Assembly: GCA_951406725.2 (NCBI GenBank)
Contig: OX597835.1
Coordinates: forward strand, 11,284,001 to 11,348,000
Length of the DNA stretch: 64,000 nucleotides
Source: Octopus vulgaris
Lineage: Eukaryota
Direction: 5' to 3'
Position 1 is the stretch's first letter; every line of letters begins with the position of its first letter. Under the pieces are notes generated by a model. That model did not search any database, was not told the DNA's origin, and worked only from the letters and a program-made list of their open reading frames with translations. The position numbers and the translations under genes were made by a program. This document shows positions 28,582-63,044 of the stretch, piece after piece.

Positions 28582-29145
28582 TCTTTATACAGCATTCACT
28601 GTTACTTATATAGTACTGACCTGTCGGTCTCTTAATTGTCAAATGACCTCACAATGAGTCCACATTTGTCTTAGAAACCAGCAAGTGGTTTATCTTGGTG
28701 TTCTGTCAGGGTTGTTTACAATCTACCATTATTCTATTGTTCATCTTGTCTGCAACTTGGCTTGGTTCCAATACTGGTAAATTTCACCTCAATGCTAAAT
28801 ACATATGTTTTAATAAAGAACCATATTCTAAGGTTCTTTTCCAATATACAATGGTTTCACTTGTTTATTTTTCGTTGGCACCAAATCTTTATCCACTCAA
28901 TGGAAATGACAACATCCTCATCCAGCTGTGGCTGCTACTGTTTGTATCTGATATTATCCAAGAGCTTTGGCTGTACAGATTCCAAAATTGGAACAATACA
29001 GAGAAGATATTATTGAATGTTTATTTATCATTGTGTTTTTGTTTGTTAAAATCCTTAATTATTATTGTTCCACATTTTCGTTTTCATTTTTACATTTTTG
29101 TTTATAAGGGTTTAAAAAATTATTTAAAAAAATCTTTTAAAAATA

Positions 29146-29525
29146 TATTTGTCCTCATCTTGTCTGTTGTTAACACAACCTTTCGGCTGATATACCCTCC
29201 AGCCTTCATCAGGTGTCTTGAGGAAAATTCAAACCTGGATCCTCATTCCTAAGGTATTTTTCGATATTATTATTAATATTATTATTCAGGTCACTACCTG
29301 GAATCAAACTCTGAATCTTGGTCAGTGACCTGAATAATAATAATAATAATAACATCGAAATATACCTTAGGAATGAGAACCCAGGTTTGAAATTTCCCCA
29401 AGACACCTGATGAAGGCTAGAAGGTATTTCAGCCAAAATATTGTGTTAGCAACAAACAAGATGAGGACAAATATTCGTTAAATGTAAATAATGTAAATAA
29501 TGTACATAATTCCTCATCTCTTAAG
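29146..29525. mobile_element. Fold-back Penelope-type (inverted pLTR-like) non-autonomous element with a hammerhead motif in each arm
   Basis: ~140 bp inverted arms, each with gacac-CTGATGA-a-ggctg..cagcc-GAAA-..tt-gtgtt (right arm mutated); second copy at 55581-55956. Confidence 0.75.
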
Positions 29526-30116
29526 TATAAATATGTACATATTTACATACTTTGTATATGAAAACCAATATGTTTATCTGCATAATTACCTCCATATCTG
29601 TTTGACTTGATTCCTCTGATAGCAACTCCTTACTCTGCAGAATTGGTTCCTTGTAAAGACATTGGAATTTAAGGTGGAATCATTTGTGTGCTGCAAAATG
29701 TTTTTTAATCTGAGAATCTCAGGATCTCATCTGACTATATGTATAAATAACAGACTCACCTATCGAAGGTGAAGTATAAGCGTTCATCTTTTGCCAAATG
29801 ATCTTCAAGAATGATTTGTTTATAGGGATCAAGTGTTCATGCTGTACGTTACCTAACTCTCACCATCGAATTGATGTTGTCTGAACAGGTGCACAGGTGT
29901 GCCACACGTCAGGTGTCAAAGTCATCGCAGAGCAATGGGAGATGAAGTATTTTTTCTCAAGAACACTATGTACCACCCAGTCTAGGAATTGAAATCACGA
30001 TCCCTCTCTATATATAAAGGGAGAGAGGAAGTGAAAATTTAAAATCTTATTAATGTGATGTCTCAGGTATTTCAGACATTTTAATAGTCATTTTTTTTTT
30101 GGTTTTTGTTTTGCAG

Positions 30117-40503: not shown

Positions 40504-40930
40504 CATCATCATCATCATCATCATCATCATTTAGCGTCCGCTTTCCATGCTAGCATGGGTTGGACGGTTCAACTGGGGTCTGTGAAACCAGAAGGCAGCA
40601 TCAGGCCCAGTCTGATCTGGCAGTGTTTCTACGGCTGGATGCCCTTCCTAACGCCAACCACTCCGTGAGTGTAGTGTGTGCTTTTTACGTGCTACCCACA
40701 CAGGTGCCAGACAGAGCTGGCAAACGGCCACGGACGGATGGTGCTTTTTATGTGCCAACGGCACGGGGGCCAGGCGAGGCTGGCAACAGCCACAATCGGA
40801 TGGTGCTACGAAGGCCAGGCCAGGCTGGCAACGGCCACGAACGGATGGTGCTATGTGCCACCGGCATGGGGGCCAGGTGAGGCTGGCAATGGCCACGAAC
40901 GGATGGTGCTTTTTACGTGCCACCAGCACA
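40504..40930 (-). mobile_element. SINE-like family C
   Basis: Reverse complement of the 49290-49913 family. Confidence 0.85.
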
Positions 40931-46637: not shown

Positions 46638-47998
46638 TCAGGTTGAGTAAAAAGTAAGCAACGTTTTGAACCATGAAGAATTTGTAAGCAGATTTTTGCA
46701 GAGTTTTGAATTTTTTAAACATTTTTTTGTTTTTGCAATTGTCTGATAATACGGACATAGACTTGCCCAAATGCATCAGTAAATTAACACTGATGTTTTT
46801 TTACCGTTGTTACAATCATCTAAAATGGAACGGTCAAGGCTCGATATTCAAGTAATTTTGCTATTCAACTTCAAAAATGGATGTAAAGCAGCTGAAACTG
46901 CTCATGATGTCAACAAAACATTTGGTGAGGAAATGACCAGTGAGTGGTCATCTTGAAAATGGTTTAAATGATTTCACATACCCATCTGTCATCGATGACG
47001 GTCAATTAAAGACCGTCATTGAGAAGGATCCATGTAAAACCACTCAAGAACTGGCAAAAGAACTTCACGTTAGCCAGAAAACTGCCTGCAACCATTTGCA
47101 TGTGATTGGAAGATCAAAAAAGCTCGACAAATGGGTACTACACGATTTGAATGAAAATCAGAAAATGCACGGAGATGAAATTTGCTTGTCGCTTCTTTGT
47201 AACCAGGCCAGTCAATTTCTTGACCGTATTGTAACTTGCGATGAAAAGTGGATTCTTAACAATAATAAAAAACGTTTTCCACTGTGGTTGGACCAAAATG
47301 AAGCACTGTAAACTTTCCCTAAATCTGAGCTCTTTAAAAAGAAGGTTATGGTGACTGTTTGGTGGTGTACTGCTGGACTCAGCCACTATAACTTCTTAAG
47401 CCCGGAAAAACCATTACTGCAGAAATATATTGCCATGAAACTGCCAAAAAGAACAAAAAACTGCTACTCCTCCGTCTCAAACTGGTCGAACAGAAGAGAG
47501 TCAATCACTCTTCATGATAATACTTGACTACATGTTTCACTAATGATGCTCCAGAAGTTGAGGGAACTTGTCTAAGAAAGAGACAATGTTGTTGTTGACA
47601 GAGAAATAGAGTAAGAGAGAAAGAGAGAGAGAGTGTGTATGTGTGATAGATAAATAGATAGGTAGTGTTGTCACTGAAGTAACTGACAAGTTCTTCCCCA
47701 CCCAGCTTATTCTCCAGACCTTTCTCCAACCAGTTACCACTTTTTCAAGCACCTTGATGGTTTCCTGCAAGAGAAGAAGTTCAAAAATCAAACTGGTGCT
47801 GAAAGTATGTTCAAAGAGTTCATCAGCCCCAGAACTCCAGACTTTTATGTTACTGGAATAAATAAAAACTTGTAACTCGTTGGAGAAAATGTTTTGATTG
47901 TGATGGTACAGACTTTGATGAATAAAATTTCTGCATCATTGAAGAAATTGTGATGAATTTAATGTTTCAAAACGTTGCTTACTTTTTACTCAGCTTGG
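46638..47998 (+). mobile_element. Near full-length defective mariner (Mos1/Hsmar1-like DD34D) transposon
   Basis: ~33 bp TIRs (tgagtaaaaagtaagcaacgttttgaa); ATG 46825 to TAA 47925 with stops and frameshifts; motifs WVLHDL, RIVTCDEKW, KKVMVTVWW, LHDN, HPAYSPDLSPT.YHFF. Confidence 0.93.
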
Positions 47999-49289: not shown

Positions 49290-49913
49290 AAAGCAGAACC
49301 AAAATCGAAGTCGATCAACATCAATGGAAATTGTGGCTGTGATACCAGTGCCGGTGACAAGTAAGCGAACCATCCGATTGTGGCCAGCGCCGCCCCGACT
49401 GGCCTCCGTGCCGGTGGCACGTAAAAGCACCATCCGTTCGTGTCCGTTGCCAGCCTCGCCTGGCCCCCGTGCCGGTGGCACGTAAAAGCACCATCCGTTC
49501 ATGGCCATTGCCAGCCTCGCCTGGCCCCCCTGCCGGTGGCACATAAAAAGCACCATCCATTCGTGGCCGTTGCCAGCTCCGCCCCGACTGGCCCCCATGC
49601 CGGTGGCACGTAAAAGCACCATCCGTTCGTGTCCGTTGCCAGCCTCGCCTGGCCCACGTGCCGGTGGCACTTTAAAAGCACCAACCGTTCGTGGCCATTT
49701 GCCAGCACCGTCTGGCGTCTGTGCGGGTGGCACGTAAAAAGCACCCACTACACTCGTAGAGTGGTTGGTGTTAGGAAGGGCATCCAGCCGTAGAAACATT
49801 GCCAGATCAGACTGGGCCTGGTACAGCCTTCTGGCTTCTCAGACCCCAGTTGAACCGTCCAACCCATGCTAGCATGGAAAGCGGACACTAAACGATGATG
49901 ATGATGATGATGA
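49290..49913 (+). mobile_element. SINE-like family C with ~6-7 internal ~60 bp repeats
   Basis: Repeated gccggtggcacgtaaaagcaccatccgttcgt..ccgttgccagc; (GAT)n tail. Confidence 0.88.
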
Positions 49914-50299
49914 TTTACATTTATCATTTAAACACCACTTGATTCTTCTGCTATAGAATCAAGCACTACTTGCTCAAAGTAGACGTGGATTGTAGTATTG
50001 GAAACATTATCCACATGCACGCATGCATGCACACACACACACACACACACATTTTAGTAGAATACCAGGTATTGTCTTATTTGATGATTTTCTTGCTGTG
50101 ATGTAAATATATCAATAATGTGGTAGGGGGGGACATGTGGTATAGTGGTTAAGCTGCTGGACTTATGATCATAATGATTGCAGGTTCAATTCCTGGACTT
50201 GGCAGTGCATTATGGCCTTAAAGAACGTGTTTCATTTCATGTTGTTCCCATGCCATTATCATCTGGTTGAACTTGCTCAGACATTTTTAACCTGCTCAT

Positions 50300-54480: not shown

Positions 54481-54867
54481 GTGTGGTAAGTAGCTTGTTT
54501 ACCAACCACATGGTTCCGGGTTCAGTCCCACTGCGTGGCACCTTGGGCAAGTGTCTTCTACTAAGCCTCGGGCCGACCAAAGCCTTGTGAGTGGATTTGG
54601 TAGACGGAAACTGAAAGAAACCTGTTGTATATATGTATATATATATATGTATGTGTGTGTGTTTGTGTGTCTGTGTTTGTTCCCCCTAGCATTGCTTGAC
54701 AACCGATGCTGGTGTGTTTATGTCCCCGTTACTTAGCGGTTCGGCAAAAGAGCCCGATAGAATAAGTACTGGGCTTACAAAAGAATAAGTCCCGGGGTCG
54801 AGTTTCTCGATTAAAGGCGGTGCTCCAGCATGGCCGCAGTCAAATGACTGAAACAAGTAAAAGAGTA
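54481..54867 (+). mobile_element. SINE family A
   Basis: Colinear with other copies. Confidence 0.9.
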
Positions 54868-54869
54868 TA

Positions 54870-55780
54870 TATCAGAACAATTGTACCAAAAAATTCTTGG
54901 AACAAAGTAGCTTTACAATAAAATGTCTGATAGATTTGATAAAGAAACTCAGAATAGAAGAACAATTAATGCCACAGATGAGCAAAATGGTACATCTTTC
55001 TTTTAGATGAAACTCAGAGATAGCAAGGCATAATATGCTTACCAATCAAGAGAAACTGAAGATTAATAACTTCCCAATGAGGACAAAAGATTAATTGATA
55101 TTCAAATTAGCACAAACGGAACGAGGGACTGAAATATCCACTCTTCAAAAGTCTGACTTTTCCAAATGAAAAATGGTCTCCCAGGATTCTTCTGAAAATT
55201 AAATCTCACTGAACAATTTTTTGCAAAAGAGGATAACAATGATGGTGAGTCTCTGATAAGAAATAAATGTGATTTTTGTCCAAAGAAAGCAAGGAATGAA
55301 GCACTTGACTCTTCCTGTAAACATCTCATGAATTCTCCATTGAAATGATTGAAAATAAGAATATAGAACAGGAAATATTTAAATTATCTACAATAAGATA
55401 TCAAAGCAGCAGTTGAAGAAACTGGTGAAAGTTGTTCTGTTGTCATGGTTACAAATTATCATGAACAAGTTGTACTTAAAATGTTAGAAAATAATACTTA
55501 CTATGTAAAAATAAATAACAATGAAAATATCTTTAAAAAAATGGTAAATCTACTGATTTCACTGAACATGACCCATACATACAGTTCTATATTTAAGAGA
55601 TGAGGAATTATGTACTTATTTACATTATTTACATTTGATGGATATTTGTCTTCATCTTGTTTGTTGTTAATACAACGTTTCGACTGATATACCCTCCAGC
55701 CTTCATCAGGTGTCTTGGGGGAAATTTCGAACCTGGGTTCTCATTCCCAAGGTATTTTTCAATGTTGTTATTATCAGTGG

Positions 55781-55815
<35 letters not shown>

Positions 55816-56460
55816 TCGAAAAATACCTTAGGAATGAGAACCCAGGTTCGAAATTTCCCCCAAGACACCTGATGAAGGCTGGAGTGTATATCAGCCGAAA
55901 TGTTGTGTTAGCAACAAACAAGATGAGGACAAATATTCGTCAAATGTAAATAATGTATGACCCATACATGTTTGACCACTGAATATTTTGATTACATCAG
56001 CAACTTCAGATACAAAAATAACAACAAAAAATAATAATTCTATGGCCTATCTAAAATACACAAAAAATAAGTTATAAAATCTTTGAAAGCAACTATACCA
56101 AAATGTCATCTGCAGATGATTTGGATTAGTCTTACTTAAATCAGTTACAGAGTTTTATTTGCTATGATCCAGAAATGCTTAATCGCTTACTGAAAAGTTT
56201 TAACCAAAATACTATTTTTTTTTCCCCATTGATGTTGTAATGTTATGCACCAAAACCACTGATGCCAAAGGAATCACATTAAATATTGATATGTTATCAA
56301 TTTGAATTACCAGAACATAGAAATAAAAATTTATCATTGATGGACACATTCATATTACAAAACACTTATTTAATATTTGATCAATCAGCCTACCAACAAA
56401 TATCTGGAACCATGATGGGAACTAAAGTACTCCCAATTTAGACCAATTTACTGATGTGAT
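54870..56460 (+). mobile_element. Decayed Penelope-like reverse transcriptase ORF
   Basis: IKAAVEETGESCSVVMVTNYHEQVVLKMLENNTYY (ADKG..VV.M-like block) near 55400-55510 and QQISGTMMGTKVLPI*TNLLM (Q..GT.MG...AP.YANLFM) at 56395-56457; interrupted by the fold-back element. Confidence 0.7.
55581..55956. mobile_element. Fold-back hammerhead-bearing element, second copy, opposite orientation, with TSD
   Basis: ~170 bp inverted arms; hammerhead motifs at 55669-55714 (-) and 55864-55909 (+); 13 bp TSD atgacccatacat at 55568-55580 and 55957-55969. Confidence 0.8.
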
Positions 56461-57753
56461 AGCATGAAATGAAAATGTATGTTGAATCGATATGCTCTGG
56501 TGGTATTTGATCAGTTGTTAAGGATGGATGAGAATTAATTCTGTAATGCAATCATTCTGTTATTCCAGTCCTAAGTTGAACTCCAACTGTTGGCCAATTT
56601 GTCCCAAAGTTCTTATCTTGACGTAAAATTAATGAAGGGAATGTCATTTATCTCCCTCTTGATCTCTGATGTTATCTGACTGACACCAGCAAAATGGTGT
56701 GAATCTGCCAAGCTTACCTGCTAGAAATAACAACCTAAATGCTTTAAAATCAGATCCCGATGCTGGACGTTCAAGAACCAAATGCTGGGTAGATTTAAAA
56801 TCCCAGAATCATCCTGATTCCACAACGGTGTAATACGTCTATGTAGACCAAACATAGACTGAGATACAGGGGTCCCGGATGGACGGACAGACAGAATTTG
56901 CTTTTATTATCATAGATGTACACACATATAGATGCATGCATACATCCTCATACAAACACAATCACACATACATGCACACATATATTCACATACACACACT
57001 CATACATACATGTGTATAGGCACCAGCACACACATGCAAACGCATACACAACTACATGCTCACACCCACATTCCCACATATACATACACACACATACACT
57101 CACACCTGCAATTATTTGTAAAATGGAACTAGATACACCCAAAATCCATGATTGCAACAGAGGTTCCATTCTTTGTTTAACCATTTCCCTTTATCTCCTC
57201 CTGGTGTTTCTGGTTTCTTGTCATTGTGAATGGCAGAAACTGGAATCGGATTTACCAAACTAACTTTATCTTGGAACTCTGCGAGGAATGTAATATATTT
57301 GCATATTTAGTAATTCTATTGTGGCCCTTTTAGTTCTACTTGTGTGTGTGTGTGTGTGGGGAGGGCTAATTCATGTATGGCATTTCTCTTTTCCGTATCC
57401 ATTCATGCACGAACACTTCATAAATATATTTCTTGGATACATATCTAATTTATAGTACATCATCTGCATGTGTGTGTGTGTGTGTGTACTTACATATAAA
57501 CATAGTTATTCAAAAGAATATAGACCCCCGCAGAAGAATGCATGGAAGGATTTATTGAATTGGTAACGCATATAAGCCCAACATTTCAATGTAAAATTCT
57601 ATCTGAGGCATAATTGTTCTATGAATATTGCTATGATATATACGTACATAAATGTGCACATATATACATATATATATAGATAGATAGACACACACACACA
57701 TACACACAAATATGTATATACTGTAGCAATATTCATAGAATAATTGTCTCATA

Positions 57754-61570: not shown

Positions 61571-62310
61571 AACCAGTGTTTGACAAGATTCTGCCTGCAT
61601 TTAAACTAGAAGTCATAAGCAATCACATCAGCTAGAAATCAATGACCATAGCTTTTGTATTGGGTCCTTTTTTTTTTGCTGACTTTGTAGCTGTATCTCT
61701 CGTGTAGCTATTATTATTGATCTGTCTGGCAACCGATATTTGCTTTTATAGACTTGGCTTATCTCTTTACTTCCCAATAATGTAACAATTGTGTTAATTA
61801 AAATGTATGTTTGTTAAAGATTAAGATGTTATTTAACTAACCAAACAAAGAATAAGAATTGCACTCATTTGATGCTGAAAAATCTATTAATTTGATCTTG
61901 GATGGCAATATTCTTTGAATCGCTAAAGCAATGGAAGAATTAAGAAGCAAAAAAAAAAAAATTAAAAAAATAAAGAAATCCAAGATAAAAAGAAAATATA
62001 ATCGTAACTAATGAAAAGAGATAAATTTGATTGTGCTTAAAACTTCGTCAGTCATTTAGATTGAGTGGTGTTTTTTGTTTATTTGCTTTTTGTTTTTTTT
62101 TTTGTTGTTTTTTTTGTATTGAAAGGGATTATGGGAATAGAAGTGATTGTAACAAAGATATTACAGAATCGGTTCTATTTTAGCACAGACTTACTCATAA
62201 CAGGACTGGAATTCAGAAAATTGATAAAAATAAAATATATCAGTCACTTGCATAATGTTTCCACTACTTACTGCAGGCGGGGTTGGTTCTGTTTACGGCT
62301 AGATGGACTG

Positions 62311-62500
62311 AGACAATATGAGTTAGTATTCATAGAAGGTGATGGGTCCTATTTACAACCTGGTGGACAGAGACAATATGAGTTAGTATTCATAGAAGGT
62401 GATGGGTCCTATTTACAACCTGGTGGACAGAGACAATATGAGTTAGTATTCATAGAAGGTGATGGGTCCTATTTACAACCTGGTGGACTGATCCAATATG
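62311..62500. repeat. 60 bp minisatellite, three near-identical copies
   Basis: agacaatatgagttagtattcatagaaggtgatgggtcctatttacaacctggtggac(a/t)g. Confidence 0.95.
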
Positions 62501-63044
62501 ACTGATGAACACTCTTTACAGCTAGGTGGACTGATCCAATATTGTCTCAGTCCATATAATATTGCTGGCATTGTGCCAAAATGTGAAACCAATTTTATCA
62601 CAACTTGAATCAAGTTTGTCCCACTGCGTGGCATCTTAAAAGCTGAAGCCTTTTGCATTTTCTCTGATTTTCTGCTTATTTGGTTAATATCCAGAATGGA
62701 TACCAAGCCATCAAGAAACATTGTCCTTGTAGTATGTAGTTAGTTACTAAACCTCATGAAATTAAAGTTAAATTCTGAAACCTTTAGGATTTTAGAAATC
62801 ATTTGGTAATGATATAAAGAAAACAAGATAAGGGTAAAGCATGTGTGAGCTCTTGTGTTACTGAGCTCATGTGACACAATGTGTGGTCTTAAAATATACG
62901 TTTTCTCTTTGTAACAGGATGATAGCAAATTACTTAAAACATTTCACATATTTCTCGTTTGAATATAAATCTCTTGACTGTAAAGTTCATAGGCTAACCA
63001 AGATATTCTCATGGGATGTGATTAAATGAGGTTCAGTTATTAAT

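Follow-up and report, generated by a model that had tools for sequence, protein, structure and literature searches.

The analyzed window, a 64,000-nucleotide stretch of an Octopus vulgaris contig (OX597835.1), contains a 376-bp insert (55581-55956) that is devoid of any ORF, is flanked on both sides by an identical 13-bp duplication and interrupts an ORF that probably corresponds to a decayed reverse transcriptase (RT) of a Penelope-like element (PLE). A second copy of the same family is found 26 kb away. The features of the locus and of this second copy are the following:

54860..55567, plus strand: decayed host ORF upstream of the insert, probable PLE RT (motif likeness)
55568..55580, no strand: left target-site duplication (TSD), 13 bp (identity to the right copy; host frame restored on excision)
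55581..55620, minus strand: 40-bp PLE-type tail, on the left arm only, whose terminus is the long 3′ end of the family (alignment; read ends at the equivalent position)
55621..55774, minus strand: left arm, pLTR-like, sense on the minus strand (arm alignment)
55669..55714, minus strand: minimal type I hammerhead motif of the left arm, core from 55709 (descriptor scan and sequence reading)
55774..55803, no strand: inversion junction and (AAT)n run (sequence comparison of centres)
55804..55956, plus strand: right arm, tail-less, ending at the short 3′ end of the family (arm alignment; family reads)
55864..55909, plus strand: minimal type I hammerhead motif of the right arm, core from 55869 (descriptor scan)
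55957..55969, no strand: right TSD, 13 bp (identity to the left copy)
55970..56560, plus strand: continuation of the host ORF, frameshifted, with RT-like motifs (sequence reading; Atlas lead)
29145..29536, no strand: copy 2 of the family, with an eroded tail-less left arm, a 28-bp central spacer and a right arm with tail

The 13-bp duplication is the longest direct repeat flanking the insert; when the left 61-bp flank was shuffled 2000 times in dinucleotide blocks, this length was attained once. Furthermore, in-silico excision of the insert and of one copy of the duplication renders the host frame continuous and, therefore, the TSD can be considered as real. This confirms the non-coding insertion of about 375 bp with a clean 13-bp TSD that was proposed by the initial annotation. 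Its two arms are arranged head to head (55621-55774 on the minus strand and 55804-55957 on the plus strand) and are identical in 142 of 154 aligned columns (12 mismatches, 92%); the arm length of about 170 bp initially given is reached if the pairing of the central AAT run in the fold is included. The inverted arms were thus correctly recognized from the start, but the outer tail carried by the minus arm had been overlooked. It can also be observed that a weak stem-loop can form between the tail and the body located before the short 3′ end (55581-55670 on the minus strand, 29458-29521 on the plus strand). The loop includes this short 3′ end together with two or three copies of a 9-bp unit; by analogy, this might be an RT-start structure like that of the Anolis element.

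The insert is flanked on both sides by motifs that we take to be PLE-RT-like and Neptune-like. The host ORF also gives a weak Atlas lead, its nearest named clusters being RVT_1 at 0.87 and 0.80. A Pfam search did not confirm its identity as a PLE RT, and a protein search with this ORF returned 391 candidates, none of them at E ≤ 0.001. The decayed PLE RT host that had been claimed is thus probable, on the basis of motif likeness and of the Atlas lead. No link was found between the host ORF and the inserted family. Elsewhere in the window, a stop-free stretch (46937-47311, plus strand) resembles what we take to be a fragment of Tc1/mariner transposase, and a frame at 62065-62505 (plus strand) encodes a three-fold repeat of 23 residues, i.e. 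a tandem unit of about 69 bp.

Each arm of the insert carries a minimal type I hammerhead motif. A scan of the 64-kb window with a minimal-hammerhead descriptor identified cores at +55869, -55709 and -29212 only. When a palindromic stem III and a stem I of at least 2 bp were added, one match was obtained in the window compared to none in each of 100 shuffled windows; with a stem I of 3 bp, the window gave no match. Rfam did not match any hammerhead in the whole window, nor in the minus arm searched separately. In the plus arm, stems I and II are intact and stem III carries a C>T change at a CpG, the predicted cut being located between 55904 and 55905. In the minus arm (predicted cut between 55674 and 55673), the stem III palindrome is intact, stem II includes a G-U wobble and stem I one C-A mismatch. 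The initial description of stem III (AACGUU, intact in the minus arm and altered by C>T in the plus arm) is therefore exact, and that of stems I and II, given as present in both arms, holds for the plus arm and fails for the minus arm on account of the mismatch and the wobble. Neither motif is thus fully intact.

Copy 2 is the sole other copy of the family inside the window. The claim that it shares the architecture of the insert (29146-29525) holds for the family and the inverted arms, but its centre is different and its tail is carried by the opposite arm. Its plus-arm hammerhead is degraded and no TSD was found at its ends; an AT-rich 16-bp palindrome (29529-29544) lies at its right end, at the position expected for a TSD. 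About 140 bp upstream of copy 2, the 5′ half of a U6 snRNA is found on the plus strand (28962-29008), matching positions 1-49 of the Rfam model with 25.5 bits, below the gathering score of 44; it is likely a decayed U6 retrocopy or a U6-headed repeat. The centres of the two copies differ, and the alignment of these centres scores 38 in the same orientation and 33 in the opposite one. A single 36-bp deletion between two TCAG motifs would convert the centre of copy 2 into that of the insert, and the right arm of the insert starts with a short motif that also opens the right arm of copy 2. The inner ends of both copies all fall either in the AAT run or in the approximately 45 bp that precede it, a shared zone that hints at a short template or at a stalling site. 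In addition, the two right arms (55815-55956 and 29353-29494), although 26 kb apart, have in common two alleles that are rare in the DNA of the family (at most 6% and 3% in the DNA set X1, 4% and 2.5% in X2), and the left arm of the insert carries the majority letters at both sites. A common master, nearby gene conversion or the use of two RNA templates per insertion all fit this allele sharing.

In public data, 14 of the 24 runs listed, across four organism labels, contain at least half of the words of the insert. Four runs (two RNA read sets and two DNA contig sets, X1 and X2) were aligned to 299 bases of copy 2, and run X20, which had a small share, was left out. These data cover the arm and tail of copy 2, not its centre, and are family-wide, under organism label B, with no assignment of reads to a locus. 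The aligned RNA reads amount to 7397 of 12,895,792 and 5901 of 11,974,664, and the aligned DNA contigs to 21,165 and 13,198, which indicates a very abundant repeat family, the summed contig depth not being taken as a copy number. Loose read ends whose flanks are mixed accumulate at two positions, 29494-29504 (among the rows listed, at least 98+84 contigs in X1 and at least 73+75+94 in X2) and the tail end near 29536 (at least 366+107 in X1 and at least 333 in X2). The family therefore has two 3′ ends, with and without tail, which are the equivalents of both termini of the insert. RNA depth over the tail is 0.5-0.6 of that of the body, and the depth profile indicates that most arms reach the AAT end of the readable region. 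Among the 15 of 55 joints listed, two involve a strand change: the joint 29415/29470 is supported by 116 and 79 RNA reads and by no DNA contig, and the joint 29451/29490 by 65 and 51 RNA reads and one DNA contig; an RNA-only joint of this kind could be a reverse-transcription artefact. No back-joint corresponding to a unit-length circular RNA was found among the same 15 joints. RNA ends do not pile up at any position, which is a weak test of cleavage as the libraries are fragmented.

The majority letters of the family, obtained from these public runs, retain the hammerhead core, whose loss would have spoken against the initial reading, and, at the damaged positions of copy 2, re-establish stem II and the GAAAC-GUU core. 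The conserved core, stem II, the extra base 9/10.1 and the palindromic 15.2-16.2 are present in the minus arm and in the family majority. The stem III palindrome shows CpG decay in the family reads, its C being retained in 42-62%, a figure inflated by reference bias. The minimal type I hammerheads of metazoan PLEs share this core, a 6-bp stem II starting with G-C, the extra base 9/10.1, a 5-bp stem I and a palindromic minimal stem III, as described in the accessible part of PMC4209133; the motifs reported here belong to a different sequence family.

Related repeats were also encountered in public protein collections, where the predicted proteins P0001-P0009 are apparently spurious translations of a related hammerhead repeat. 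Seven of them (P0001-P0007) correspond to a related family, known from translations alone, which is organized as head-to-tail repeats of about 129 nt in a retrozyme-like way. These translations cease matching at the position equivalent to the tail end of the insert. Two of their reading frames imply that a U-A pair of stem II is replaced by C-G and that the variable position 7 is altered. Of the searches with arm translations, one gave no candidate and two gave 6 and 3 protein matches, which were rejected as a link to PLEs: they are apparently spurious repeat translations and none includes an RT. These searches thus revealed no RT-bearing protein that could be an autonomous PLE partner. A 20-nt arm pattern had no match in genome and viral contigs, and the four metagenome loci matching it were discarded as chance matches of 22-26 nt in unrelated sequences.

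Four features of a PLE insertion unit are present at this locus: a hammerhead-bearing pLTR-like repeat, an inverted partner, a one-sided 40-bp tail and a 13-bp TSD. According to the accessible parts of previous reports, an inverted 5′-truncated copy is typical of PLE insertions, as is a one-sided tail of 30-40 bp (PMC8557442); inverted pLTRs, a 31-bp tail and 8-10-bp TSDs have been found, head-to-head being the commonest arrangement (PMC3846280), and the tail corresponds to the sequence that separates two start sites of the RT (PMC11167929). We consider it probable that the insert was laid down by a PLE RT/endonuclease and that, at integration, one and the same short 3′ segment of the RNA was copied two times; the ribozymes are predicted to be buried as a result. 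By analogy with published work on PLEs, the enzyme would nick AT-rich DNA on both strands, 13 bp apart. Each strand would then have its own start site of reverse transcription, the two sites being separated by about 40 nt, and a microhomology of a few bases would allow the resulting short cDNAs to be joined by their 5′ ends. As for the template, a heavily truncated autonomous PLE is less likely than a short non-coding RNA terminated by a PLE pLTR, since the breaks of the two copies fall in one common zone of about 45 bp before the AAT run.

The initial annotation had proposed a fold-back element as the replicating unit. This reading appears rather unlikely; it supposes a non-autonomous master whose centre is fixed, which is transcribed from one strand or the other and whose entire length is retrotransposed by a PLE RT. 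The tail would then be found on whichever arm was copied first, and the centres would have diverged by later microhomology deletions. Such a master would account for the common start of the right arms, for the 36-bp TCAG-bounded deletion that connects the two centres and for the two rare alleles shared by the right arms; the same observations count against a formation at insertion, and two arms copied from a single RNA would not be expected to differ at such alleles. Furthermore, 40-50% of the arms are tail-less, so that inverted pairs may be the main form of the family, and the arms mostly run as far as the AAT end of the readable region. However, the comparison of centres and alleles involves two copies only, and nearby gene conversion or two RNA templates per insertion would also explain the shared alleles. 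We favour an inversion at each insertion over a fixed master because the centres differ and because two more inversion joints are found in reads. As regards a centre common to all copies, the two copies of the window do differ, yet one 36-bp deletion can link them. A hairpin RNA template is also disfavoured because RNA of the family is apparently heavily edited (see below) and the DNA copies do not carry the A>G/T>C load expected from an edited hairpin (0.06-2.7% at 15 sites), although germline editing may be lower. Finally, PLEs need no master to acquire such an anatomy, as described in the accessible parts of PMC8557442 and PMC3846280. The first reading therefore stands as a PLE-derived, hammerhead-bearing, non-coding insertion from an abundant family that was likely mobilized by a PLE RT; the fold-back as replicating unit is not borne out by the different centres, the two additional joints, the one-sided tail and the two 3′ ends.

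A DNA-level fold-back or MITE-like element with a captured PLE end, moving by cut-and-paste, would also show long inverted arms, the lack of ORF and a clean TSD. It is very unlikely, since the inverted repeats fall short of one end (the 40-bp tail is carried by one arm) and the two 3′ ends of the family in reads are the signature of a PLE tail. Long palindromes can be assembly artefacts and no read is tied to the locus, but the probability of a fold-back chimera is negligible given that the arms differ at 12 of 154 sites, that a 13-bp TSD is present and that excision restores the host frame.

Formation at insertion by a PLE enzyme, the reading that we favour, has consequences for the two ribozymes. 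The whole insert is predicted to fold as one hairpin (-247 and -225 kcal/mol). The probability of stem II is 0.44 for the plus arm alone and 0.05 for the minus arm alone, and it falls to 0.000 in the whole insert on either strand. Each strand includes one sense core, and the antisense arm is always transcribed before it. It is formally true, as was first stated, that a hammerhead is present whichever strand is transcribed, but the antisense arm comes first and stem II is not expected to form in the whole insert. Whichever strand is read through, the RNA is predicted to trap its single sense hammerhead in a duplex of about 155 bp and to lack the second sense copy that a dimer needs. The ribozymes are thus predicted to be buried and inactive in the hairpin and, given this drop of the stem II probability, the opposed hammerheads are best read, on the basis of these models, as passengers. 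In the accessible part of PMC4209133, minimal hammerheads show no cleavage as monomers and low cleavage as dimers, and in that of PMC11167929, hammerhead mutants of a PLE still insert in vitro. A function of the two opposed ribozymes in this place, such as the cutting of host read-through RNA of either strand, in trans or with the assistance of a protein, is highly improbable. Cores are indeed present on both strands, and a PLE hammerhead was protein-assisted in vitro (accessible part of PMC11167929); however, each arm carries a lesion, stem II does not form in the modelled insert, the stem III palindrome undergoes CpG decay in the family and the pile-up of RNA ends that cleavage would leave is absent, the latter argument being weak for fragmented libraries.

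The duplexes formed by such inserts would be edited by ADAR, as the reads suggest. The editing comparison concerned 26 of the 40 sites listed (140 in total), 14 having been dropped where copy 2 holds the minority letter, and RNA and DNA came from different individuals and data types (raw reads versus contigs). At 15 A>G/T>C sites, the change reaches 5-25% in RNA, compared to DNA medians of about 0.4% (X1) and 0.5% (X2); these sites show 0.06-2.7% of A>G/T>C in the family DNA, mostly under 1%. The median RNA/DNA ratio is 24 for these 15 sites versus 2.3 for the 11 others (p = 0.002). A>G or T>C is found at 57 and 61 places in RNA versus 16 and 14 in DNA, and C>T plus G>A at 32 and 32 places in RNA versus 27 and 34 in DNA; the excess of A>G/T>C over C>T/G>A in RNA is significant (p = 0.005 and 7e-5). 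A 5′ G precedes none of the 15 edited-type sites versus 14 of 89 background sites, a difference that is not significant (p = 0.08). Two transversions are likewise enriched in RNA (79x and 24x), and single expressed copies can skew RNA in this manner. Neither mate direction shows more A>G than T>C, or the reverse, and the libraries are therefore likely unstranded. Overall, the A>G/T>C changes in RNA of the family likely result from A-to-I editing by ADAR. Nearby inverted copies could supply the required duplex instead of the fold-back. Independently of this family, the window includes a 300-bp inverted pair with 90% identity (40508-40807 and 49615-49914) and SINE-like repeats present in at least 8-11 copies (families D18-D20, 12372-54683), which are possible further sources of dsRNA. 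The accessible part of PMC5625713 reports a very high hyper-editing rate and many near-perfect dsRNA-forming loci in octopus, and heavy editing of Penelope in lizard and of palindromic Harbinger in Xenopus; these repeat-derived hairpins resemble the present family as ADAR substrates. The repeat-class analysis of that study excluded octopus, and no octopus family is named in the part available.

Taken alone, this locus is mostly ordinary and does not represent a new kind of element. Like the insertion units of EN+ PLEs (Penelope/Poseidon, Neptune), the insert has head-to-head arms, a tail on one arm, a TSD, an AT-rich target, a hammerhead repeat and a palindrome or microhomology at the junction (accessible parts of PMC3846280, PMC8557442 and PMC11167929). 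Unlike these units, it has no ORF and its TSD is 13 bp long compared to 8-10 bp in Adineta (same part of PMC3846280); in addition, both copies of the window stop in the same short zone near a B-box-like piece, and no autonomous partner was found in protein searches. The layout of opposed hammerheads is already described for PLEs: dual minimal hammerheads on opposite strands, 100-700 bp apart, were noted in Schistosoma mansoni in 2014 (accessible part of PMC4209133). Non-LTR retrozymes, as presented in the accessible parts of PMC7229834 and bioRxiv 10.64898/2026.07.22.740005, share with this family their non-coding nature, a type I hammerhead and a kinship to PLE pLTRs. Unlike retrozymes, the copies found here are inverted and not tandem, so that neither unit-length RNA nor circle could be excised; the window contains inverted pairs only, without head-to-tail units, and the retrozyme-like label initially given does not match the definition of these elements.

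Another reading of the family comes from the spacer of copy 2, where a B-box-like motif is found on the minus strand (29300-29309); this motif, chosen after viewing the spacer, occurs three times in the window compared to 2.4 expected. Rfam matched no tRNA on the same spacer, and ARAGORN predicted no gene. In octopus repeats, a tRNA-like head may precede this arm body. The B-box-like piece located upstream hints at a tRNA-headed SINE mobilized by a PLE. The family could tentatively be a tRNA-headed polymerase III SINE with a 3′ end made of a PLE pLTR and hammerhead. PLE-style integration or a fixed fold-back master would then convert a large share of its numerous copies into near-perfect hairpins of more than 150 bp, which would constitute a major source of the exceptional ADAR hyper-editing of the octopus transcriptome. 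If the B-box lead holds, it would resemble the SINE-like elements SM-alpha and Sj-alpha of Schistosoma, in which a polymerase III promoter is followed by a hammerhead; these are tandem repeats, and a PLE-style tail and inversion are unmentioned in the accessible part of PMC6765202. In the literature covered (most subscription journals, Repbase and Dfam being outside its scope), the available texts mention no SINE-PLE partnership and no tRNA-headed PLE-dependent SINE. They do not describe this family either, including the part of PMC10886601 that was accessible, and repeat libraries may already hold it. PLEs amount to 6.83% of the O. vulgaris genome, with 190 families, according to the accessible part of PMC13282606, whose supplement, in the small text file available, mentions neither hammerhead nor palindrome.

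The interest of these results lies in the family rather than in the single insert. It offers many natural PLE integration products on which the formation of the inversion and of the tail can be tested, a mechanism still given as open in the accessible parts of PMC8557442 and PMC11167929, and it could show whether the two arms stem from one RNA or from two. It is also a specific candidate for supplying octopus with self-folding substrates of ADAR. Finally, if its head proves to be tRNA-derived, the family would reveal a SINE-PLE partnership, in which a SINE parasitizes a PLE rather than a LINE.
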